Assembly (NCBI GenBank): GCA_043767805.1
Contig: JAYUGC010000074.1
Location: 1-33,537 of the forward strand
Length of the DNA: 33,537 nt
Direction of reading: 5' to 3'
Source: Pseudomonadota bacterium
GTDB taxonomy: Bacteria > Bdellovibrionota > FAC87 > UBA2466
In this document: positions 19,023-30,519 of the stretch, in pieces
Layout: each line of letters opens with the position of its first letter
Position numbering within the stretch: the first letter of the stretch is position 1
Position numbers and translations under genes: made by a program
Notes under the pieces: model-generated
The model's input: the letters and a program-made list of their open reading frames with translations, nothing else
Databases searched by the model: none
What the model was told of the DNA's origin: nothing

Positions 19023-20858
19023 ATGGTAGCGTGGCTTGTCGTCCTTGTGGCGTGTGTCGGATCGGGGATTTCCGTCGTTCTGAAACTGGGCCTTTTTAAG
19101 GAAAAAGGACTAGTGGCCGGGGTGGGGGCATTACTCGGTCTGACGGTCTATACGACACTCGCCTACCTCTTCTCGATCCCCTTTGATTCGGCGAAAATCG
19201 GATGCGCTTTGGCGCTCATGGCCCCGCTCCTCGCCTTTCTTTGGGCGAGACACGATCGCAAGTTGAGCCAGGAGTGGAAGCAGCTCGGGCTCGACCGAGG
19301 AGGGGTATGGGTCTTCGGGGTGACCTTTCTCTTGTACCTTCCCATTTCCCTGAAGCTCTTTTTCGATCGGGAGGGGGCGTTTTGGACGGGCATCGTAAGC
19401 GCTTTGGGCGACGTCACTTGGCATGTGGCGACGACAACTTCCTTTGCCGAGGGACAGGCCTTTCCGCCGGACAATCCCATTTTTTCCGGCCATCCTCTGG
19501 TCTACCCGTTCCTTGTGAATTTCTTGAGTGGCGGCTCTCTGGCCTGGGGCGCGACTCTACCGACCGCGATGAACGTACCGGCCGTCATCCTCCTCCCGTT
19601 ACTCGCAACGCTCTATTACTTTCTCGTGCGCGAATATTCCGGGCGGCCGAAGGTCGCCGCTCTCTCGACGTTGTTTCTCTTGCTCGCCGGATCCGTAGTA
19701 GGTTGGTTTCGGATCGTTCAAGAGTTTCGGGTGAGCCCTGAGCCTTGGTATCTCGTTCCGTTTCATTTCCCCTATCAGGATTTTTCCGGCTCGGGAGCCA
19801 GCGCGGAGGGACTGCACTTCGTTAATCCCGTCGTCTCCTTGATTCTGCCTCAGCGTTCATTTCTGTTTGGTTTACCCATCGCCTTTTGCCTCTTGCTGCT
19901 ATGGGGAAAAGGAAAAGACAAGGCTAGCGCCCTCGTGGCCGGACTACTCGCCGGCATGTTGCCTCTGTTTCACGCCCATACTGCTTTGGCGCTCATCCCA
20001 AGCCTCATTCTCGTCACGCCGAAGCCGCGCTGGAAAATGGCGCCGTGGGCGCTCGGGGCGGCGGCACTCTTCGGAATTCCCGAGGGAATCTATTTCCTCG
20101 CGCTTGGGCCCATGAGCTCGCATTTTTCCGTCAAAGCGTTTTGGATGGCGGAGAAAACGAATGCCTTGCTCTTTTGGCTGCGAAACTGCGGCGTCGTCTT
20201 TTTAGTGTCCGCCCTCGCGCTGAAAGCGCCGGTTAAGAAAGAGCTCAAGCAACTCGCCCTCGCTGGTCTCGTGTTGTTCGTGCTTGGGAACTCGTTTCAA
20301 TTCGCGCGCTGGATCTGGGACAACTACAAGATCTTTTACTTCGCGTGGATTTTCGCCGTGCCGGCGGCGGTGGCGCTCGGCGTTCAGTGGCAGGAGGCGG
20401 GCGGGAAGGGTAGGGCTTGGGCCTTGGGCATTCTCATCGGGCTGCATCTGATATCTGGCGCGCTCGATACCTGGAAAGTGCTTCTTCCCACGTCGGCATC
20501 GTTTAGTGAGTTCGACGCGGGCGCCCGCGCCGTCGCCGAGCGGATTCGCGCGGCGACGCCGAAGGGCTCTCGCCTCGTTCAGGGAACGAGTTACAACACA
20601 CCCGCGGTGCTTACCGGCCGCCGCACTTACCTCGGTTATACGGCGCACGTATGGAGTCACGGCTGGGAGCCCGCTTCGCGGGAGACGGAATTAAAGCGCC
20701 TCTTTGCGGGCGAGATGGCGAGCCCCACCGATATGCGCGTGGATTACGCGCTCGTCGGGCCGCAAGAGCGCGTGCAATTTCCGCACATAAAACCGCACCC
20801 GGCTTGGCGCTTACTCTTTAGCCAAGACGGTTACGACGTGTATCGGTTGCCCGATTGA
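19023..20858 (+). CDS. Polytopic membrane protein, GT-C glycosyltransferase-like
   Basis: More than 12 hydrophobic segments; a loop with GDVTWH and FPPDNPIFSG..LVYPF; a soluble C-terminal domain with LTGRRTYLGY..HVWSHG. The function is inference. Confidence 0.6.
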   Translation: MVAWLVVLVACVGSGISVVLKLGLFKEKGLVAGVGALLGLTVYTTLAYLFSIPFDSAKIGCALALMAPLLAFLWARHDRKLSQEWKQLGLDRGGVWVFGVTFLLYLPISLKLFFDREGAFWTGIVSALGDVTWHVATTTSFAEGQAFPPDNPIFSGHPLVYPFLVNFLSGGSLAWGATLPTAMNVPAVILLPLLATLYYFLVREYSGRPKVAALSTLFLLLAGSVVGWFRIVQEFRVSPEPWYLVPFHFPYQDFSGSGASAEGLHFVNPVVSLILPQRSFLFGLPIAFCLLLLWGKGKDKASALVAGLLAGMLPLFHAHTALALIPSLILVTPKPRWKMAPWALGAAALFGIPEGIYFLALGPMSSHFSVKAFWMAEKTNALLFWLRNCGVVFLVSALALKAPVKKELKQLALAGLVLFVLGNSFQFARWIWDNYKIFYFAWIFAVPAAVALGVQWQEAGGKGRAWALGILIGLHLISGALDTWKVLLPTSASFSEFDAGARAVAERIRAATPKGSRLVQGTSYNTPAVLTGRRTYLGYTAHVWSHGWEPASRETELKRLFAGEMASPTDMRVDYALVGPQERVQFPHIKPHPAWRLLFSQDGYDVYRLPD

Positions 20859-21172: not shown

Positions 21173-21856
21173 CTACTTGAACGCCAGCCGGTATTGATTC
21201 GGCGGACCGAAGGAGATCTCCACGTGAATGGGATTTAATTTCCGGCGCAGATTGAAGATATGCACGTCGAGCGTCTTCGATCCGACCTTCACGTTTCCCC
21301 ATACCTTTTGCACGATGTCATTGCGAGTTACGGTGTGCTGAGGCGCTTCCTGAAGCAGGCTTAGAATCTGGAACTCCTTCGCGGTCAAAAGCGCGGAGGT
21401 GGACTCGTCGTGGTGCACGCGCATGGTGCTGGGATCGATCCGCAGGCCCCGCGGTTTCGAATAGGGGCCGGTGGCTTGAGAAGAAGGACGGTTCAAGATG
21501 AACTCGGTCTTTACGAGCAGCTCGCCCTTACCGAAAGGCTTGGTGATGTAATCCAAAGCGCCTTTTGCGAAGCACTTTCTGAGCGCGTCGGTGTCATCGA
21601 GCGAGGAAACCACCAAGAACGGGATGCCATCGATGAGGCTCGCTTCCGGTGATTCCAGGAAAGAAAGAAACGATTCACCGGGAAGACGAAGATCGCACAA
21701 CATGAGGTCCGGCTTGCCGTGAGGCAGGGCGGCACGCATCTCTTCCACAGAAGAAAGCAGCTTCAGCGCGTATTGATCGCCGAAGACGTTCTCGTAAACG
21801 TAACGTGCGCCTTCTTCATCCTCGAGGACCCAGACATTTTTGCGAGTATTTAACAT
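21173..21856 (-). CDS. OmpR/PhoB-type DNA-binding response regulator
   Basis: VLEDE, LCDLRLPG (phospho-Asp), DYITKPF, LTAKEFQIL, TLDVHIFNLRRKL. Confidence 0.93.
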   Translation of the reverse strand: MLNTRKNVWVLEDEEGARYVYENVFGDQYALKLLSSVEEMRAALPHGKPDLMLCDLRLPGESFLSFLESPEASLIDGIPFLVVSSLDDTDALRKCFAKGALDYITKPFGKGELLVKTEFILNRPSSQATGPYSKPRGLRIDPSTMRVHHDESTSALLTAKEFQILSLLQEAPQHTVTRNDIVQKVWGNVKVGSKTLDVHIFNLRRKLNPIHVEISFGPPNQYRLAFK

Positions 21857-22669
21857 TTATGCTCGCGCCTCTCGCGTTAAGCGCAAAGCGTATCCGAAGG
21901 TACCGCGCTCAGGGAAAAATATGCATTTCAGGTCCCCGTTCCAATCCTCGATTAGATTACGGACTGATTGCGTTTCTAAATCCAAACTCTCGTCCTCGCA
22001 AGTTTCCCCTGCGATTGCGATACGCAGTTGTTCAGACCCTGGCTCGACCGAGACCGAGATGGTACCAGGAGCGCTGAGGCATCTGCCGAGCAAAACGGAC
22101 AAAGCGCGTACCAGCGCTCCCGATCCGATCTGCACCATTTCATCCGGAGCGGCCGCCGCGTTCAGCGAGCGAAGCGCCGGATGATCGGGGAAGCGGGCGC
22201 GTACCACGCGCAGGGCTTGTTCGTAAGCCAGGCGAAAGGACACGGGCCCTTCTTCGTCCCGTATCGCTCGCGTGAAGACCCGAAGGTGATCGAAAGTCTC
22301 GAGAGTGCGATCGGAGCTGCGAGTGAGTTGCTCCACGAACCGTGGGGTGCCCGCGACGGCGGGATTCTCGGTGAGTTGCTGAATGCAAAAGCGCATCACG
22401 TGCAAGGGAGTCCCAACGTCATGGATTGCTTCTCCCGCTGCTTTCCACAGCGGAGCTTCGGCGGTGGACCCAAACTTCGAAAATCTCCAAGACATGCGCC
22501 GCGAAAAATTGATCAGAGCGAAACCGGCGAAGGCTTGAAGCGCCGCGAAGGCCCCCCATTGCCAAGTTTGCCCGGAAAGGAGCAGAAAAGCACCTCCTAG
22601 CGATGTCACCATCCCTAGAATCCAAATTAACGGCCAGCCACTTCGGACCAACCGGCGCAGGCTTTTCAC
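21857..22669 (-). CDS. Membrane-anchored histidine-kinase-like protein with a degenerate ATP-binding domain
   Basis: Two TM segments and H-box AIHDVGTPL, but no N-box Asn and no DxGxG or GxGLG. AGGAG RBS precedes GTG. Confidence 0.7.
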   Translation of the reverse strand: MKSLRRLVRSGWPLIWILGMVTSLGGAFLLLSGQTWQWGAFAALQAFAGFALINFSRRMSWRFSKFGSTAEAPLWKAAGEAIHDVGTPLHVMRFCIQQLTENPAVAGTPRFVEQLTRSSDRTLETFDHLRVFTRAIRDEEGPVSFRLAYEQALRVVRARFPDHPALRSLNAAAAPDEMVQIGSGALVRALSVLLGRCLSAPGTISVSVEPGSEQLRIAIAGETCEDESLDLETQSVRNLIEDWNGDLKCIFFPERGTFGYALRLTREARA

Positions 22670-22765
22670 GGATCACTCCTCTGGTAACGTACAACGTGAT
22701 TCTTTGAAGTCATAAGGTTGCGCATAAATAGGCCATTTGTCCTTCTGAAAAGGAGTTAAATTTTC

Positions 22766-23329
22766 TTAATGATTTCTATGTAGGTACCAACTTAACGCGA
22801 CAAAGTCATAAAGCGCGTGGGCGAAAGCGGGCGCGAGCCATCCGCCGGAATGTACTTGCAGAGCTCCCAACGCGACTCCGATGATCGCCGTGCAGACCGC
22901 GTAACCTCTCGTAATTGAATGAGCCGCGCCGAAAACGATTCCTGCCAGCAAGCAGGATAGGGGAAGGCTTACGAAGTTTTCCAGCCAGCTCTGAAGCCAC
23001 CCTCGAAAGAGCGCTTCCTCTCCCAAACCGGCGAGGGCGGAAACCGTTAACAAACCCAGCGGTCCGAGGCCGAAAAACAACGGGCGCGCTCGCTCGTCGA
23101 GGAAAAATCGTATTTTTCGGAGGGGCGCGTAGGAAGATCGGTAGGTGAATTGGAAGGCGATAAAGCCCACTCCAGCGAGTCCTAACGCGACGGCCCACCC
23201 CGAAACGGTGGAGTGAAAACGGCTGAGTAGGGGAACGTTCGTCAGTTGCGCGAGGAGAGCCGCTACTAAGAAGAGAGAGCCTTCGAACGCGCCAATGAGA
23301 GCCAGGCGCCTGCCTGCTTCGCGCGTCAT
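22766..23329 (-). CDS. CPBP (CAAX/Abi) family intramembrane protease
   Basis: GEEALFRG, FGAAH, HALYD. ATG 23329 overlaps the upstream stop (ATGA). Confidence 0.9.
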   Translation of the reverse strand: MTREAGRRLALIGAFEGSLFLVAALLAQLTNVPLLSRFHSTVSGWAVALGLAGVGFIAFQFTYRSSYAPLRKIRFFLDERARPLFFGLGPLGLLTVSALAGLGEEALFRGWLQSWLENFVSLPLSCLLAGIVFGAAHSITRGYAVCTAIIGVALGALQVHSGGWLAPAFAHALYDFVALSWYLHRNH

Positions 23330-24054
23330 CGCTTCGCGCCGGCAGTGGGCGAGAACGCGCCCTTCACCTGAAACTCGCCCGGACGGGCGGCCAAAACGTC
23401 TTTTTGGGTGAGCAGGTTCTCGAAGCGCCACCGATCGCGCTCCGCTTCGTCCGCGAAGCCGATGGCGACCGTGAGGCCGGTCATCTTCTTGTCGCTCCAT
23501 TCGGTGAACTCACGCTGAGTGACGTTGAGAGTGAAACGCGTGGGCTTTCCGGGAACGACGGTGAAGACCTGAGACGTTTTCAAAACTTTTACGTTGAGCC
23601 CCAGCCGGCCGAAGATGACGCCATTGATCGCGAGCGTACGATTCATGGTGTCGAGGTTATAAGCTTCGAACGAAACCGAGCCGGGACCCGTCAGTTTTCC
23701 GTCGTAGTGAAGTGTGCCCGAACTTTGCGTCCGTGCGCTGGACACCGAGCCTGGGCGAGAAGGCGCCCGTCCGTCGTCGCTCTCGGCGCTAGTTTCCGCC
23801 GATTCCGCGGTCCCCCCCGCGCCTTTCGCGCAAGCCCCCGAGCGAGCGATACAGTGGACGGTTTCGCATTTAGCGAGGCAGCCGGGATCGGTATGATCTT
23901 TTTTCGTCGGGCATTGCTCGAAACAGTTCCAGTAAGCCGGGCGGCAGCAGAGCGCCATGCCGGAAGTGCCCGCGACTTCTTCGGCCGCGGGGCCTTCGGC
24001 GCGCGCGTCCAGAGCGAGGAGTAAAAGCAGGGAAACGACGTGAAACCGGCTCAT
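23326..24054 (-). CDS. Secreted protein with Cys-rich N-terminal domain, linker and beta-rich C-terminal domain
   Basis: Signal peptide MSRFHVVSLLLLLALDARA; 8 Cys within ~40 aa; coupled to the CPBP gene. Confidence 0.7.
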   Translation of the reverse strand: MSRFHVVSLLLLLALDARAEGPAAEEVAGTSGMALCCRPAYWNCFEQCPTKKDHTDPGCLAKCETVHCIARSGACAKGAGGTAESAETSAESDDGRAPSRPGSVSSARTQSSGTLHYDGKLTGPGSVSFEAYNLDTMNRTLAINGVIFGRLGLNVKVLKTSQVFTVVPGKPTRFTLNVTQREFTEWSDKKMTGLTVAIGFADEAERDRWRFENLLTQKDVLAARPGEFQVKGAFSPTAGAKR

Positions 24055-24075
24055 GAGTTGGGATATTATCCGGCC

Positions 24076-24336
24076 ATGGACAAAGAAGCCACCGCCAGAG
24101 AGCTCATCGGCTACCTGACCTCGCATCTGGTCGGTAAAGGAGCGGACCTCGACGGAAAGACGTCACTCTTCGAGGGACGGCTTCTCGATTCGATTCGTCT
24201 CATGGAGCTCATCGATCACGTCGAGAAATGCTACGACGTGTGGGTGGCCCCCATGGAGATCGTGCTGGAGAACTTCGATTCCGTGGACAGGATAATAGGC
24301 TTTTTGGAAAGAAAGCACGCGCCCCGCGACGCCTAG
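24076..24336 (+). CDS. Acyl/aminoacyl carrier protein (DltC-like)
   Basis: 86 aa; SLFEGRLLDSIRLMELI (phosphopantetheine Ser) and ENFDSV. Confidence 0.9.
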   Translation: MDKEATARELIGYLTSHLVGKGADLDGKTSLFEGRLLDSIRLMELIDHVEKCYDVWVAPMEIVLENFDSVDRIIGFLERKHAPRDA

Positions 24337-24467
24337 AACTCCATGTAGCGGAAAGGCGCGAGCTGGGTGAGCAAGGCGTAGCCTGCCAGGGCGCCCAAGA
24401 CCAGCAGGGCGGTCATAAGAATTTGCGCCGCGACTCCGAGAGAAAACCAGGGGCGCTGAGGCGTCAT
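24333..24467 (-). CDS. 44-aa single-TM DltX-like peptide with C-terminal FxYxxF motif (below the ORF-track cutoff)
   Basis: MTPQRPWFSLGVAAQILMTALLVLGALAGYALLTQLAPFRYMEF*; GGGGGA RBS; ATGA overlap with the SGNH gene stop. Confidence 0.8.
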   Translation of the reverse strand: MTPQRPWFSLGVAAQILMTALLVLGALAGYALLTQLAPFRYMEF

Positions 24468-25591
24468 GGATTCCCCCACTGAGTGAGAAGCGGCGTTGCC
24501 GACGGCCTCAGGCGCGCGATCGCGCTCGCCAAAGCGTAGTGATAGCGGAGCTTGCCGCCACTGGTGGGCTTTAGGTGCACGGAATCGACGAAATCCTCGG
24601 GAGTAAGCCCAAGGGTCCAGGCGAGATCCAGGTACTCGATGCCCTCGGTTTCGGCGAGCGCTCGCGTGAACGCGCTTATCACTTCCACTTTCGCGGGAAT
24701 CAAGCGGCGGAAATCGGGGTTCATCGGAGTTTCGAAAAGAGCGACTCGGTAGCCTTTGGCGCGCGCGATCTGAATGGCCTCGGCCAGAAGCTCGAAGGAC
24801 TCGAGATAGGCATTTTTTCTCTCAAAAAGATGATGGCGCAAGCTCTCCGGCTTGAGACGCGGGCTACTCTCGCGGGAAAACGCGAGAGAAGGCACGGGCG
24901 CGCCTTCGACGTAAGCGAGTTGTTTCGCTTCTTCCCGTTTCGGCCACACGCTCCACTCGGGGATCTTACCGGAGAGTAAGTGCTTTCGGTTCATGGGAAG
25001 GTAGAGGCGCAGGTAGTTCACGAAAGCTGGAAGCACGAAACGAAACCGCCAGCCACTCTCCCCGCGGCTCTCCGCGTAGCGCGCGACCGTTGGCGATGCG
25101 AGCATGAGGTGGCTGGTGCGCGCCGCTTTCGCGACATCGGCGGAACGCTCGCGAAAGCGCATGGCGGTGGTCGCAATCAGCACGAGTCCCCGTCCCGGGG
25201 GCAAGTTCTCGATGATTTGCACGGTCTCCGCCATGGCTTGTGTCGGCGTGTGCAAAGTTATGACTTCGGGCGGCTCCTTTTTGCCTAAGCGCTCGATGGA
25301 ACGAGTCAGCGCGGACTCCCCGAAATAGGCGTGGTAGAGCGCTGACGAGCCTAATAAGATCACGCGTTCCCGTCCGGGGTGAGCGCGCATTTTGCCGAGG
25401 CGGTACGGGATGTAACTCCACAGATCGTGCGTCCAGATGAGAAAACGCCCGGCGGGAGCGCGAGAGAAAACGAACGAGCGCAACGAAAGTTCCATCCCTC
25501 CCAGAACGAGCCCCGCGACCAGGACGCCCGCCAAAAGGTACCTCGGCCTCGTGTGGCGAAAGCCCGCGAGGAAACTTTGCCGGCGGTTCAT
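24464..25591 (-). CDS. Membrane-anchored SGNH-like acyltransferase (DltD/AlgJ-like)
   Basis: N-terminal TM, VILLGSS and DFVDSVHL (DxxH). ATG 25591 overlaps the MBOAT stop. Confidence 0.8.
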   Translation of the reverse strand: MNRRQSFLAGFRHTRPRYLLAGVLVAGLVLGGMELSLRSFVFSRAPAGRFLIWTHDLWSYIPYRLGKMRAHPGRERVILLGSSALYHAYFGESALTRSIERLGKKEPPEVITLHTPTQAMAETVQIIENLPPGRGLVLIATTAMRFRERSADVAKAARTSHLMLASPTVARYAESRGESGWRFRFVLPAFVNYLRLYLPMNRKHLLSGKIPEWSVWPKREEAKQLAYVEGAPVPSLAFSRESSPRLKPESLRHHLFERKNAYLESFELLAEAIQIARAKGYRVALFETPMNPDFRRLIPAKVEVISAFTRALAETEGIEYLDLAWTLGLTPEDFVDSVHLKPTSGGKLRYHYALASAIARLRPSATPLLTQWGNP

Positions 25592-26769
25592 CCCGCCTCC
25601 TGACTCGGCCACGGGGTGAGACAAGCCGCGAAGAGTGACCAAGCGGAGCTCAGATCTTTTGCCGTCACGAACGCGTAGCCGAGAGCGACGAAGAGGAGGG
25701 TCAGTGGAATACCGACGAGGGAGTCCAGGGCGGGCCGATCTTTCCATGGCCGCCAGCGCCGCCATTTCGCATAAGCGACGAGTCCCGACGCGTGATAACC
25801 GGCCCACGCCACCCAGTTCCAGGAAATTTGATGCCAAAGACCGAGCGTCAGCATCGACGCGTAAGTGGCGATCCAAGGCTTGCGCCAAACTCCGAGCACG
25901 GGAAAATAAACCTGATTCCGGCACCAGTGGGAGAGAGATATGTGCCAGCTCCGCCAGAAATCGGCGAGGTTGGTACGTAGAAAAGGCTTATCGAAATTTT
26001 CGGGGAGCCTATAGCCGAATAGGCCGCCGAGACCCACGGCGATGTCCGTGTACGCCGAGAGATCGAAGAAGGCGTAGAGAAACATCAAGATCACGAAGGC
26101 GAGGGGGGACGCGGGAGGGTAAGTCGCCAGAGCGAGCGAAGGCTGCGAGAGAAAGTCTCGTGTGAAGTCGCCGAACGCGTACTCAAAAAGCCAGCTCACA
26201 AGGAAGAGCTTCTTGAAATAGCCCGTGAGGATCCGGCGCAAACCCTGGGCCGCGCGGTCCCAGTCCCACTGTGGGTTTCTCTGTCCGTAAAAATTCTGAA
26301 ACGTATCGATGGGGCCCGCGGGTAAGGCGGGAAAGAAAAAGAGAAACGCCATGAGCCGGGGCCAGGACGTGTCGGTCAGGGTGCCTCGGTATCTGTCGGC
26401 GGCATATTGAAGCAGGCGAAAAATAAAATAACTGATGCCCAGGGGCGCGAGAAAGTAGCGCTCGAGCCAGGTTCCCGAGGCCAAACGCCCTATGAGCCAC
26501 GGCGCGGCCTTCACCATTGCCAGAATCGCTAGCGAGAACGAGAGCAGAAGCAGGAGCGGCCGGGAGCGGCCGGGTTTGGCGCTCAGGTGAACGAGGGTCG
26601 CGGCGCCCAGCGCGATCGCAGCAAACAGCGGATGGAGCGCCGCGAGAAAGAGAACGGAAGTTATCCAAATCAAATGAGTTCGGGAGTTGGCGCTTCGCAG
26701 CAATATCCAATGAAGCACCAACGTGCCCGCGATGAATAGAAAGAAGCGCGGATCGAGGAAGAGTCCCAT
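25588..26769 (-). CDS. MBOAT O-acyltransferase (DltB/AlgI-like)
   Basis: PLGISYFIF, FFPALPAGPI, DLSAYTDIA, PENFDKPF, FWRSWHISLS, GLWH. Confidence 0.95.
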   Translation of the reverse strand: MGLFLDPRFFLFIAGTLVLHWILLRSANSRTHLIWITSVLFLAALHPLFAAIALGAATLVHLSAKPGRSRPLLLLLSFSLAILAMVKAAPWLIGRLASGTWLERYFLAPLGISYFIFRLLQYAADRYRGTLTDTSWPRLMAFLFFFPALPAGPIDTFQNFYGQRNPQWDWDRAAQGLRRILTGYFKKLFLVSWLFEYAFGDFTRDFLSQPSLALATYPPASPLAFVILMFLYAFFDLSAYTDIAVGLGGLFGYRLPENFDKPFLRTNLADFWRSWHISLSHWCRNQVYFPVLGVWRKPWIATYASMLTLGLWHQISWNWVAWAGYHASGLVAYAKWRRWRPWKDRPALDSLVGIPLTLLFVALGYAFVTAKDLSSAWSLFAACLTPWPSQEAG

Positions 26770-26982
26770 GAGTATTGAAGAGAGCCTTGAGATTACCCCC
26801 GCGCCCGGAGTGGGGCAACCAGCGGGGCTTCAGCGAAAGAACACTCTCGGTAATAATGCATAGTGTCGACGGAGAAGGCCGACAGTCAGCTGTTAAGAGA
26901 AAACCTCGGGTCTTCCTTAGGTTTCGATTGCCTCGCCTATACTGAGATCTATAAAACCCTTGGGAATGGGTTGGAGGTTTCT

Positions 26983-29900
26983 GTGATTCCGAATTTGGTT
27001 CGCGCTCGTGTCGCCGTGGCCGCTCTTTTTCTTGTCGTCACTCAGACGGCCTTCGCGGTTAAATTCACCCAGCGAGAGTTCAAGTTTCAGGTGCCCGCGC
27101 GGGCGCAAATAAACTTGGATCTCAAGACGATCGTGAAAGAGGTTTCCCTCCTGGGCGGAACCGTTCACTACACCGCGCACAATCTTCCCAGCTGGTTGAG
27201 CCACGATCAGGATGCGCAGCACCTCGTCGGCTCTCCGCCCATGGGCACGAACGGCGTGCACCGCTTTGGCATCGAAGTCTCTCAAGGATCCACTTCGGAT
27301 TTTTCGTTCATCGAGTACACGGTTTTTTCTCCGCCGAAGTGGAAGCAGCCGCTCGTCGAGCTAGGCACGCAATGGGAAGGCCGCGCGTTCACTTTGGACT
27401 TGAACGACTACATCGAGAATCAGATCGGCCGTTCCTTGTCTTTTTCCGCTACGGGCCTGCCGCCGTGGATGTCGCTTTCGGCCGATGGTCTTTTGTCCGG
27501 CCTGCCTAGCCATTCCGATTTCGGAACTTATACCGGCATCATGTTCCGCGTGGATGGACCCTTTGGTACTTACTCCACCGCGGGAGCCGCGGGCCAGGTT
27601 CGCCCAGTTCCCATTCTTCCCAAGTGGACGAAGAACGTCGTCACCATCGACGACGCCACCGAAGACACCCTTTATGAGCGCGTGCTCGCCGAGTTCGTTT
27701 CCAACCCCGATGGCCTTCCTCTGAACTTCGCTTTGGTCGCGGGAAAATTCCCCCCCTGGATCAACATTACCAATCAGGGCAAGCTTTTCGGCGTTCCCCG
27801 CCGTCAGCACCTGGGCGCCAGCAGCATCGACGTGGAGCTTTCCGCTTCGGCGGCCGGGCTTACGCAAAAGGAAGTCGTTCGCTTTACCTTCCAGGTGAAT
27901 CGCATCAACAAGGCGCCGATTTGGAAAGAAAGCACCGTGCTCCTGCCGAGAGCCCTCGAAGGCAATCCTTACCTCGCGGACCTCAGCTCCTATGTCGACG
28001 ATCCGGATCTGGCTCTCGGCGACGGGTTGTTTTTGGAAATCGTGAGCGGGCCGACTTGGGCTACCATCGCGCCGCCGGCTCTCCTTAAAGGAACGCCTCC
28101 AGTCAATTTCCTGGGCGTTCAGACCTGGAAAGTCCGTGTCTCCGACGCGGGCGGACTCTCGGCGACCGCCACGGTCACCACCGAAGTGGTGAAAGCAAAT
28201 AAGCCGCCCACCCTTCAGGCGGGACTCAAATTCACTTTGAAAGAGCGCAAGGCGTATCAGGAAAATCTCGGTAAGTTCACCTCCGACGCGGAGAACGAGA
28301 TTGTGACCTACGAGCCCATGAACTTCCCGTCGTGGGCGAGACTCGCGCCAGATGGCAAGCTAGAGATGGCGCCGCAGCACGCCGACTTGGGGGATCACAC
28401 GCTCTCCGTTCGTTTAGGAGACGGCACTTCCAAAGCCGTGGGGACTTTCGTCGTTACCGTGCAGGCCGATCCGAAGGCGCCCATTTGGCTCGAAGATCCG
28501 ATCCGGGTCTCCGCCATTTCGGGGACACCCTTTGCGCTCTCAATCGCCGACAAGGCGAAGGAGCTCAATAACGGAGAACTCACCTTCTCGAAAGTTTCCG
28601 GCCCGGCTTGGCTCGCGGTGGACGCCGCGGGGCGTGTGGGCGGGTCGCCCAAAGACGCCGATGTCGGCGAAGCGAAGTTCATGGTCTCCGCTAAAAACAG
28701 CATCGGCGAAACTCAAGCGACGTTGCTGGTCCGCGTGAGCCAGGGCAATCGGCCCCCGCAGTGGACCCAAGATCCTTTGACGCTCCCGGCGGCGAAGTTC
28801 GATCTTCCATTTAGTTTCGATTTGTCGGCTTACGCCCAAGATCCCGATGGCGATTTCCTGCGTTACACGAAGGTCTTCGGCCCGTCTTGGATGACGCTCT
28901 CTTCCGACGGCAAAGTCTCCGGCATGCCGAGCAGCGGCGACCAAGGGGACTACGCGGCGGTGTTTGAAGTCAGCGACGGCAAGGTAGCCATGCAAGTCGG
29001 CGCGAAGGGCAAAGTGGGCGACACGAACTCGCTCCCGGTGCTCAAGGGCGCAATGCTTACTTTCCTCGTGAAAGCGAAGGGAAGCCTTTCCGAGAACCTC
29101 GCTCAAAAGAAGTACGTGGATGACGCCGATGGCGACACGCTGACCTTCACGGCGGATGGATTCCCGGTCTGGGCGGCTTTGACGTCGCAAGGTCAGTTGA
29201 CCTTGAGCCCGACGGAGCTCAACGCGGGTAACTTCACGCTTCGGTTTACGGTCAGTGACGGCAAAGGTTCCGTGAATGGAACGATGACGGTTCGCATTTC
29301 GAAGGATCCTCGCCCGCCGCTCTGGCTAGAAGATCCGGTGCAGGTCGGCGCCTCGCCGAATCAAGCTTTCACGATTTCCCTTACGGAAAAAGTGCAGGAC
29401 TTCGATGGTCTCGCGCTGACTTTCCAAAAGGTCTCGGGACCGTCGTGGTTAAGCGTCGCCGCAAATGGCGTTGCCTCGGGCACGCCGGCGACGGCTAACG
29501 TCGGCGTCAACACGTTCCAGATCTCGGCCTCCAGCGCGAACGGCGCCATCGAGGGAACGCTGAAAATCAACGTGCGCACGAACCTCTATCTCGTTCAGTT
29601 CCCGCTGGATAACGGCGGACAAAACCCGCGCACGGAAATTCTCTGGGCCATCGACAACTCGGCGGCTACCGCTCCGTACTTAAAGAGTCTCTATTCCGGC
29701 GTGCAGACCTTCTACACCGGCTTGGAAACGGCGGGCGTGAAGGCGGTCTCCGGAGTCATTTCCACCCGCGAATGGGACGGGCGTTTCCTGACCGATAACG
29801 GCGGAAGCGCGCTGCTCACCGGGGCTCCGGCGGATGTAGCGGCGGATTTCCGCCGCCGGGTGGAGCGGGCTCCCACGGGGGCTATCCAGAACTCTCCGTT

Positions 29901-30519
29901 CTGGGCGCTGTCCAGACTGTTTGAAGTCAGCAAGACCTCGACGACTCAAGTGTCGAAAGGCTTCTGGTCCGACGCGACTCCCATGGAAGTGTTCGTACTG
30001 ACGGGCGCGGGGGATAATTATCCGCAGCTCGTCGCGGGAACCGATAAGGAGAAGTACTCGACCGATGACTTCTTGAGAAGCTTCCTGCGCTTCCACGAGC
30101 AGAAGGGTCAGCCCTTCACGGTCAGCGTGTACGACATGCGCTGTCCGCCGGCCTATGACCCGGCCAATCCGGCGGCGCGACCGGCTTACTTGACGCTCTC
30201 GAACGCGACGCTCGGCACTTACTTCTACCAGGACGAAACTTGCCGGGATGGCGTCAAAGGCGCTGTTAGTGACTTCCTGAAAGCGGCGGCTTTCCGGGCC
30301 CAGGTCTTCTCGAATCAGCGGATCAAGCTCGATTGGCCGCCGCTCGGTAAGAATCTGAAGGTCCGCTTAAAGCGCGGCTCGCTGACGACGCTGCCGGGTA
30401 ACACCGGCGCCTCCGACGATGCGTGGTACTACGACGCGAAGACGAAGGAAGTTGTTCTGCGCTGGCACAAGATCCTGACCCGCGTGCAGCCCGGCGACGA
30501 AATTCAGATCACTTACTAA
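26983..30519 (+). CDS. Large secreted adhesin-like protein: about 9 cadherin-like/Ig repeats plus a C-terminal VWA-like domain
   Basis: GGAGG + GTG 26983 and a signal peptide. Repeats of ~92-98 aa contain PxW, DPDGD, GPSW, G.LSG.P and VSDG motifs; EILWAIDNS follows. Confidence 0.85.
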   Translation: MIPNLVRARVAVAALFLVVTQTAFAVKFTQREFKFQVPARAQINLDLKTIVKEVSLLGGTVHYTAHNLPSWLSHDQDAQHLVGSPPMGTNGVHRFGIEVSQGSTSDFSFIEYTVFSPPKWKQPLVELGTQWEGRAFTLDLNDYIENQIGRSLSFSATGLPPWMSLSADGLLSGLPSHSDFGTYTGIMFRVDGPFGTYSTAGAAGQVRPVPILPKWTKNVVTIDDATEDTLYERVLAEFVSNPDGLPLNFALVAGKFPPWINITNQGKLFGVPRRQHLGASSIDVELSASAAGLTQKEVVRFTFQVNRINKAPIWKESTVLLPRALEGNPYLADLSSYVDDPDLALGDGLFLEIVSGPTWATIAPPALLKGTPPVNFLGVQTWKVRVSDAGGLSATATVTTEVVKANKPPTLQAGLKFTLKERKAYQENLGKFTSDAENEIVTYEPMNFPSWARLAPDGKLEMAPQHADLGDHTLSVRLGDGTSKAVGTFVVTVQADPKAPIWLEDPIRVSAISGTPFALSIADKAKELNNGELTFSKVSGPAWLAVDAAGRVGGSPKDADVGEAKFMVSAKNSIGETQATLLVRVSQGNRPPQWTQDPLTLPAAKFDLPFSFDLSAYAQDPDGDFLRYTKVFGPSWMTLSSDGKVSGMPSSGDQGDYAAVFEVSDGKVAMQVGAKGKVGDTNSLPVLKGAMLTFLVKAKGSLSENLAQKKYVDDADGDTLTFTADGFPVWAALTSQGQLTLSPTELNAGNFTLRFTVSDGKGSVNGTMTVRISKDPRPPLWLEDPVQVGASPNQAFTISLTEKVQDFDGLALTFQKVSGPSWLSVAANGVASGTPATANVGVNTFQISASSANGAIEGTLKINVRTNLYLVQFPLDNGGQNPRTEILWAIDNSAATAPYLKSLYSGVQTFYTGLETAGVKAVSGVISTREWDGRFLTDNGGSALLTGAPADVAADFRRRVERAPTGAIQNSPFWALSRLFEVSKTSTTQVSKGFWSDATPMEVFVLTGAGDNYPQLVAGTDKEKYSTDDFLRSFLRFHEQKGQPFTVSVYDMRCPPAYDPANPAARPAYLTLSNATLGTYFYQDETCRDGVKGAVSDFLKAAAFRAQVFSNQRIKLDWPPLGKNLKVRLKRGSLTTLPGNTGASDDAWYYDAKTKEVVLRWHKILTRVQPGDEIQITY

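Follow-up and report, generated by a model that had tools for sequence, protein, structure and literature searches.

A putative Dlt-type acyl relay with a non-DltA, probably relocated ligase in an uncultured Gram-negative Bdellovibrionota bacterium

Contig JAYUGC010000074.1 of assembly GCA_043767805.1, from a Pseudomonadota bacterium that GTDB places in the Bdellovibrionota (FAC87; UBA2466), was analyzed over its whole length of 33,537 nucleotides (the window), and we found four adjoining genes, which encode an MBOAT protein, an SGNH-like protein, a DltX-like microprotein and a stand-alone carrier protein (Table 1). We consider it reasonably likely that these four genes supply the carrier and the membrane components of a Dlt-type relay with five components, the fifth being an adenylating ligase encoded on contig C66 of the same genome, and the group transferred being an acyl group other than an alpha-amino acid. 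By its sequences, the system is a rearranged relative of the Gram-positive Dlt machine in an uncultured Gram-negative sediment bacterium, and it probably moves a carrier-bound acid, likely other than D-alanine, across the inner membrane to an envelope target. An earlier sequence-only reading of this DNA had described the genes as a Dlt-like acyl-transfer module in a diderm context. Indeed, the locus has the split architecture of Dlt, with a short MBOAT without a tail, a separate microprotein ending in FxYxxF and a carrier, and since the genome gives an LpxC match of 316 bits and the window encodes an outer-membrane beta-barrel protein, we likewise regarded the host as a diderm.

From the gene content, motifs, predicted folds, co-occurrence and phylogeny that we observed, we infer the chemical steps and the pairing of ligase with carrier as follows. 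The adenylate-forming ligase would activate a carboxylic acid and join it in thioester linkage to the holo-carrier at Ser39; the MBOAT would take the acyl group from the carrier at the cytoplasmic face and pass it to Tyr41 in the FRYMEF tail of the microprotein at the periplasmic face; and Ser83 of the SGNH protein would receive the group and esterify a periplasmic or envelope acceptor.

Table 1. Features of the window and of other contigs (C) of the same genome
Feature	Position	Strand	Description
MBOAT	25588..26769	-	393 aa; short, DltB-like architecture
SGNH-like protein	24464..25591	-	375 aa from ATG at 25591; membrane-anchored; acyltransferase/esterase-like, putative DltD role
DltX-like microprotein	24333..24467	-	44 aa from ATG at 24467; one transmembrane helix
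Carrier protein, stand-alone	24076..24336	+	86 aa; Ser39 in LLDSIRL, codon 24190-24192
Candidate relay ligase	C66:30360-31646		Best genome match to operon-ligase profile
PfaA-like synthase cluster	C66:24000-40000 (L022)		FabI-like reductase, ketosynthase, AT-ACP-KR-DH, relay-type ligase, old-yellow-enzyme reductase, family-less 677-aa protein
Fused MBOATs elsewhere in the genome	C29:10605-12002; C82:8703-10082; C168:20109-21467		452-465 aa; ends FLYFQF, FIYFEF, FIYYVF
Ig-repeat surface protein (He_PIG/Big_9/cadherin-like)	26863..30519	+	1218 aa; Pfam; divergent from MBOAT gene; context only
OmpR-type response regulator, HisKA-like protein, Rce1/CAAX-type protease, family-less secreted protein	21173..24054	-	Pfam; context only

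The three minus-strand genes are translationally coupled, as the plus strand reads TCAT at 25588-25591 and at 24464-24467, which gives an ATGA stop/start overlap at both the MBOAT-SGNH and the SGNH-microprotein junctions, and CTAG at 24333-24336 contains both stop codons of the convergent microprotein and carrier genes. The two ATGA overlaps and the overlapping stop codons had been reported by the sequence-only reading, and both agree to the base with the open reading frames (ORFs) and the sequence. The microprotein and carrier genes overlap tail to tail in both species of the genus, by 4 nt in the window and by 16 nt in the other species (L026:9398-9413). Scans of positions 23300-27000 for promoters (1 vs 0.7 in shuffles) and for terminators (6 vs 4.6 in shuffles) gave results no better than shuffled sequence. 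Among sequencing runs, none of RNA was listed for the locus, and three DNA runs in which it is present may be its source.

According to the accessible text of a study on bacterial MBOAT/SGNH pathways (PMC12148441), FxYxxF is an acyl-shuttle motif, in which the tyrosine accepts the acyl group from the MBOAT and delivers it to the SGNH enzyme, and Dlt differs from the other pathways by its carrier protein and separate microprotein; the others draw on acyl-CoA, have the motif on additional helices of the MBOAT itself, and lack both a carrier and a DltX-like microprotein. By this distinction the window has the Dlt-type architecture, that is, a separate FxYxxF microprotein and an MBOAT without a tail. 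The protein belongs to the MBOAT superfamily (Pfam PF03062, E 8.1e-20, 71.8 bits vs a cut-off of 27), its sole solved relatives among the PDB sequences were the DltB structures 8jem and 6bug (E about 5e-27), and its H276 and H313, invariant in 13 sequences, both align to histidines of DltB 8jem. Its C-terminus (...PWPSQEAG) has no FxYxxF tail and is thus not of the fused AlgI/PatA type, and the protein is about 60-70 aa shorter than the three fused MBOATs of the genome (Table 1). Upstream of the fused MBOAT on C82 we also observed a stretch weakly similar to the SGNH protein of the window (tblastn E 0.038).

The microprotein has one hydrophobic helix and ends with F39-R-Y41-M-E-F44, which fits FxYxxF. 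Among the 86,127 stop-to-stop frames (at least 30 aa) of the genome, six end with F.Y..F, namely the three fused MBOATs, the microprotein of the window, a DUF5989 microprotein on C85, and one that looks like chance; because the ending is so rare and three of its bearers are fused MBOATs, the motif match of the microprotein is, on this count, far from chance, and the assignment of the 44-aa peptide as a shuttle peptide in the sequence-only reading gains support. In the same-genus genome the microprotein is 59% identical and also ends with APFRYMEF, and the equivalent peptides end with FRYEGF in the sister-family Bdellovibrionota and with FRYVGF in Thermoleophilia. Other split forms were observed as well, in which MBOAT genes are directly followed by ORFs of 38-50 aa (L087, L088, L089, L097); such ORFs end with FIYTDF in a Desulfocucumis metagenome-assembled genome (MAG), FLYALF in two unclassified MAGs, and FKYLNW in a Flavobacteriales MAG, the last with two ligase-like genes upstream.

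The carrier protein scored 18.8 bits with the Pfam PP-binding family (PF00550), just under the cut-off of 20.8, and its closest solved sequences were type II peptidyl/acyl carriers (6cxt, PigG, E 1.2e-5), with DltC at E 0.11. In its model (pLDDT 88.8) there are four helices, and helix 2 starts at Ser39, which is invariant in 13 sequences and is the predicted phosphopantetheine site; all Foldseek matches listed for the model were carrier proteins or complexes containing one, with PltL, PigG and DltC at the top and holo-PltL as the best (TM 0.79). The predicted four-helix fold with a Ser at the start of helix 2 therefore identifies a putative phosphopantetheine carrier, and the genome encodes three phosphopantetheinyl transferases.

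The SGNH protein has no Pfam or NCBIfam family of its own (Lipase_GDSL_2, E 0.075, below cut-off). Its model superimposed on TesA (4jgg_A) with a VIA Z of 16.6 and a root-mean-square deviation of 2.2 over 166 residues, and in a Foldseek search DltD structures took ranks 1-7 and 10 with about 372 columns at a low TM of 0.37-0.43. S83, D336 and H339 are the sole invariant columns among 53 sequences of the family; S83 would be the Ser of block I and D336/H339 the Asp-x-x-His of block V, which together make a predicted triad, and block III is E287-x-P289-x-N291, with N291 kept at 90% or more in 15 sequences. With this fold and the Ser, Asn and Asp-x-x-His blocks, the protein falls within the SGNH hydrolase superfamily, an identity confirmed by the predicted fold, the Pfam call being weak. 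The family is larger than a quick search indicates, as a word-based homologue search returned 4 proteins vs 496 cluster representatives at E<=1e-3 in a full hidden Markov model (HMM) scan of 1.84 billion proteins; the Pfam touches among the 53 members were 18 Lipase_GDSL_2, 2 DltD, 1 ALGX and 1 DUF1574, and the family profile found nothing significant among the PDB sequences (best E 0.19).

We ran two Bacillota dlt operons as positive controls against the NCBIfam Dlt models. For DltB (TIGR04091, cut-off 375), the MBOAT of the window reached 151.1 bits vs 465 / 445 for the controls; for DltC, the carrier reached 16.7 bits (TIGR01688, cut-off 52) and 20.4 bits (NF003464, cut-off 68) vs 80/74 and 81/75 bits; for DltD (TIGR04092, cut-off 150 bits), the SGNH protein had no NCBIfam match at E<=1 and the controls scored 300 / 318; and for DltA, the controls scored 565 / 544 with TIGR01734 (cut-off about 560) and 584 / 571 with NF003417 (cut-off 476), while the window has no DltA-type ligase by either model. 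The second control DltA was thus just under TIGR01734 (544 vs 560 bits). Judged by these profiles, all four NCBIfam Dlt models fail and the system is not canonical Dlt. The Bacillota locus L128 (G067:C17) was observed to encode true Dlt proteins in the order dltC, dltD, dltA, dltB, with a 467-aa DltB and a 600-aa DltA as open frames; its DltB, DltC and DltD pass the cut-offs, and its DltA passes NF003417 (571 vs 476) and stays under TIGR01734 (544 vs 560).

The MBOAT tree united the sequences of Bdellovibrionota and Thermoleophilia in one clade (SH-like approximate likelihood ratio test, SH-aLRT, 99) and the two control DltB sequences in another (100). A phylogeny of the MBOAT had been proposed in the sequence-only reading, which would not have stood had the cluster fallen within a characterized clade; the MBOAT lies outside the control DltB clade and the Dlt models do not recognize the system. 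Both clades group with Chloroflexota MBOATs, weakly supported (91), and three of the four Chloroflexota MBOATs have carrier and ligase genes nearby, which hints at a wider carrier-fed MBOAT assemblage beyond the two clades. The window MBOAT shares 40-46% identity with the Thermoleophilia MBOATs, and public records label the MBOATs of this clade as AlgI, MBOAT family or, once, DltB.

Compared with DltXABCD of Bacillota, the system has the same roles (ligase, carrier, MBOAT, microprotein, SGNH), a short MBOAT without a tail, an FxYxxF microprotein of about 45 aa, a stand-alone carrier with an LDS-motif Ser, and a membrane-anchored SGNH protein, with DltD structures as the top Foldseek matches of its model. 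Unlike DltXABCD, it is recognized by no NCBIfam Dlt model, its MBOAT is in a separate clade, its gene order differs, its ligase is unlinked and of an acyl/aryl-CoA type (23% identity to DltA, without the Asp that binds the alpha-amino group), and its host is a diderm without teichoic acids. One explanation for the shared five roles and shuttle motif would be a divergent but true D-alanylation system, which modifies an envelope component with D-alanine as in Dickeya dadantii. In this Gram-negative bacterium the dlt genes (dltBAC and dltD/pbpG), which their authors call homologues of the Gram-positive D-alanine system in the accessible part of their paper, give polymyxin resistance, a dltB mutant being polymyxin-sensitive (PMC3544676), and a two-component system lies near the window locus. 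By the same account, a diderm with a dlt operon was already on record (PMC3544676), and Dickeya, compared here by its published description, is alike in having a Dlt-type system in a diderm and unlike in that the ligase of our system is not DltA-like and is unlinked. However, the controls were near or at the cut-off of TIGR01734 and well above the others where the four models fail for the window, the ligase clade is apart from DltA with Thr in place of Asp, and the MBOAT clade is apart from both control DltB sequences, so that we regarded true D-alanylation as very unlikely.

To examine related loci, 80 were gathered with an alignment of the window MBOAT and three relatives and were scanned with profiles made in this work; 60 of the 80 hold an MBOAT of at least 300 bits, and 46 of those are flanked by 5 kb or more upstream and by 1.5 kb or more downstream. 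A carrier gene was present in 46/46, an SGNH gene in 46/46, a small ORF ending with F.Y..[FW] in 45/46 and an adenylating ligase gene in 45/46 (all four in 44/46), and the sole locus without a ligase belongs to the other species of the window's genus. A dedicated carrier and an adenylating ligase are thus linked to the MBOAT across the loci; the window's genome has the carrier gene adjacent to the relay genes and the ligase of this clade on another contig. The order was carrier, microprotein, ligase, one to three SGNH genes, MBOAT and SGNH in Thermoleophilia; microprotein, carrier, SGNH, ligase and MBOAT in the sister-family Bdellovibrionota (G034, G036); and MBOAT, SGNH and microprotein, convergent with the carrier, in the window's genus. 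The parts are kept through three gene orders, which is therefore good evidence of a functional link, and on these gene neighborhoods the link between carrier and MBOAT is strongly supported. The sequence-only reading had made its proposal depend on such co-occurrence and had suggested a search for a co-occurring adenylation enzyme; the carrier accompanies this MBOAT clade in every locus with enough flank, and the search found the ligase in all but one of them, with a ligase of the same clade elsewhere in the window's genome.

The MBOAT of this genus could instead have switched to an acyl-CoA donor, as in PatA/AlgI-like systems, with the carrier as a leftover or working elsewhere, since the ligase is gone from the locus, the carrier gene is on the opposite strand, and most bacterial MBOAT/SGNH systems use acyl-CoA, as far as the accessible text of PMC12148441 describes them. 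In PatA/PatB and AlgI-type systems, as portrayed there, the MBOAT likewise passes the acyl group via the FxYxxF tyrosine to an extracytoplasmic SGNH transferase, but the motif is fused and the donor is acyl-CoA, whereas in the window a peptide apart from the 393-aa MBOAT carries the motif. Against such a switch, no other of the five parts is as well conserved within the genus as the carrier (74% identity), which keeps Ser39, its tail-to-tail position with the microprotein is kept in both species, and the MBOAT is inside a clade whose other loci all have a carrier, which makes an acyl-CoA donor improbable.

When 401 Bdellovibrionota genomes were searched with the SGNH profile, four gave matches above 400 bits and four more gave 42-69 bits, a truncated 116-bit match at a contig edge being found in a fifth genome; the relay is thus rare in Bdellovibrionota (strong matches in 4/401 genomes) and common in Thermoleophilia. 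In the MBOAT tree, Thermoleophilia and the lineages of Bdellovibrionota part from a polytomy, and an approximately unbiased test did not reject monophyly of the Bdellovibrionota sequences (p-AU 0.323); therefore, we name no donor lineage. This patchiness, together with the missing ligase, is also what would be expected of a decaying, non-working remnant of a transferred operon that lost its ligase. Yet all four ORFs are intact in the two species of the genus, coupled and with their catalytic residues kept at 54-74% identity, and the G+C of the locus matches that of the genome (59.8% vs 57.9%), and we hold decay to be most improbable. The Thermoleophilia operon shares with the window the MBOAT clade, the ligase clade (SH-aLRT 99) and the carrier and microprotein families, but differs in being one operon with several SGNH paralogues and an upstream flavoprotein gene in a monoderm actinobacterium host, whereas in the window's genus there are one SGNH gene, a convergent carrier and a ligase beside a polyketide synthase. 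In two Thermoleophilia loci an FMN_red-type flavoprotein gene is directly upstream of the carrier (L052:2926-3849 (+), L027:3944-4921 (+)), and in the window's genus a flavin ene-reductase, of a family other than FMN_red, follows the relocated ligase.

No AMP-binding gene is present in the window, and all 12 AMP-binding matches of the genome are on other contigs, in line with the statement of the sequence-only reading that the window has no DltA-like ligase. With a profile built from nine operon ligases, which scores the operon genes of both G034 and G036 at about 760 bits, the C66 ligase scored 227 bits vs at most 160 for the other paralogues, and its same-genus counterpart scored 244 bits. 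It aligns to the operon ligases over its full length with the core adenylation motifs kept and, ahead of the P-loop, one deletion of some 55 residues. A quick tree of 24 ligases placed the operon ligases together with the C66 type in one clade (SH-aLRT 99), outside of which were the two control DltA, grouped with the nonribosomal peptide synthetase (NRPS)-type domains of the genome (99), and also the ligases of the Chloroflexota loci. Moreover, with the C66 ligase as query, exactly four of 61 relatives were matched at E<=1e-40 (its own genome, the same-genus genome, G034 and G036), the match in G034 and G036 being the operon ligase itself, and the SGNH profile matches the same four. The divergence of the C66 ligase tracks that of the other four parts, as its identity to the G001/G034/G036 counterparts is 62/36/35%, compared with 64/40/46% for the MBOAT, 74/38/41% for the carrier, 59/30/32% for the microprotein and 54/24/28% for the SGNH protein. 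By these comparisons, the C66 gene is the probable ligase of the relay, relocated, and may serve the relay, the synthase beside it or both.

In both species of the genus, the C66 ligase gene is between an AT-ACP-KR-DH gene (PfaA-like synthase) and an old-yellow-enzyme gene. The relay could therefore work with its carrier loaded by another adenylating enzyme or by a transacylase linked to fatty-acid or polyketide synthesis, with the C66 ligase serving the synthase only; the ligase stands in the synthase gene row with short gaps in both species, and the genome has 11 further AMP-binding matches. On the other hand, the C66 enzyme is the sole paralogue in the operon-ligase clade, and its distribution equals that of the relay and not that of the synthase (4 vs 17 of 61 genomes), and we considered a different loading enzyme unlikely.

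As to the substrate, the operon ligase fell in the generic adenylate-forming enzyme clusters alone in a protein atlas, and the best NCBIfam matches of the clade ligases and of the C66 ligase were fatty-acyl/aryl-CoA ligases, with DltA not among the 25 matches listed. On these matches the ligase is of the acyl/aryl-CoA-ligase type and is not DltA-like. When the operon ligase is aligned with a control DltA (23% identity), the Asp of the FSFD motif of DltA aligns to Thr. In adenylation domains this aspartate binds the alpha-amino group of the substrate. Because the ligase has no Asp there, neither D-alanine nor any other alpha-amino acid is likely as the group transferred.

Several observations weigh against the five-component relay with the C66 ligase that we favor. 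There is no ligase at the locus in the window's genus, and the C66 ligase, likely co-transcribed with the polyketide synthase genes, may serve the synthase instead; the synthase itself (AT-ACP-KR-DH) is more widespread than the relay, being present in 17/61 relatives, most of them without the relay. The counted loci are mostly from Thermoleophilia and are not independent, with three lineages represented, and the trees were quick searches with few outgroups, with SH-aLRT as the sole support measure and with long-branch warnings. Nor is the DltB match of 151 bits specific, as MBOATs in three other genomes score 136-208 bits with TIGR04091, many of them in frames long enough for fused forms. The likeness of the SGNH protein to DltD is weak in sequence (hhalign of the family profile vs a control DltD, 40.7% probability over 80 columns), confidence in the SGNH model is intermediate (pLDDT 66.8), residues 147-218 being modelled poorly or not at all, and its best VIA matches were generic SGNH hydrolases and not DltD. 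Further, our reading of the Asp position draws on the general features of adenylation motifs.

What these data support is a putative Dlt relay with another type of ligase, in a diderm, with the ligase unlinked and in a polyketide synthase operon. AlmEFG of Vibrio cholerae also has a ligase and a small carrier, which feed the glycine modification of lipid A in a diderm, but its transferase is an LpxL-type acyltransferase of the cytoplasmic face and, as far as is known, not an MBOAT/microprotein/SGNH relay. In our literature search, neither this clade nor a Dlt-type relay whose ligase is not DltA turned up in any paper, and the Lipocone preprint treats a different subject. Where the accessible text of PMC12148441 states that non-Dlt pathways have neither carrier nor microprotein, this clade has a carrier, a microprotein and a non-DltA ligase. 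If the five-component relay is real, carrier-fed trans-membrane acyl relays are not confined to teichoic-acid D-alanylation and also occur in a Gram-negative lineage, and if the chemistry is confirmed, there would be a new envelope modification in Thermoleophilia and Bdellovibrionota and a wider substrate range of the tyrosine acyl shuttle. The window's genus would be a natural experiment, in which the ligase has left the relay genes and joined a polyketide synthase operon, and this new association is a lead to the acyl group. We also entertain, tentatively and as rather unlikely, that the relay has been rewired to the polyketide or fatty-acid line, so that the ligase activates the product of the synthase and the relay exports it for ester formation with an acceptor in the periplasm or outer membrane, perhaps the large surface protein with Ig repeats that is encoded beside the MBOAT; if true, this would be a carrier-dependent trans-membrane lipidation or acylation in a diderm, with no described counterpart.

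In the flanks of the sister-family and Thermoleophilia loci, where genes for an LPG_synthase_TM protein, a Polysacc_synt flippase, an FMN reductase and an esterase were found, nothing pointed consistently to an acceptor. In both sister-family genomes (G034, G036) a secreted, highly repetitive Gly/Tyr-rich protein of 255-280 aa is kept as a neighbor after the MBOAT (L020:5033-5800 (-), L021:3508-4347 (-)), and it could be an acceptor or an unrelated wall protein. In the same-genus genome (L019), a 1220-aa ORF adjoins the MBOAT gene in the same place as the 1218-aa Ig-repeat ORF of the window, to which we likened it by position and size, and ORFs similar in size and order to those at 21173..24054 are beside the locus, likened by ORF layout.

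The 49-aa DUF5989 microprotein at C85:1874-2020 (-) (L120) ends with APFIYTLF, which fits FxYxxF, and its gene is between SxtJ-like and carbamoyltransferase genes, beside rhamnose-type sugar-nucleotide genes, on a stretch with no MBOAT; by its ending and neighbors, it may be a tyrosine shuttle for another group, e.g. carbamoyl. In the window itself, near the two-component system, positions 19023-20858 (+) encode a 611-aa protein with many long hydrophobic stretches and no Pfam match at E<=0.01, which is probably a polytopic membrane protein.

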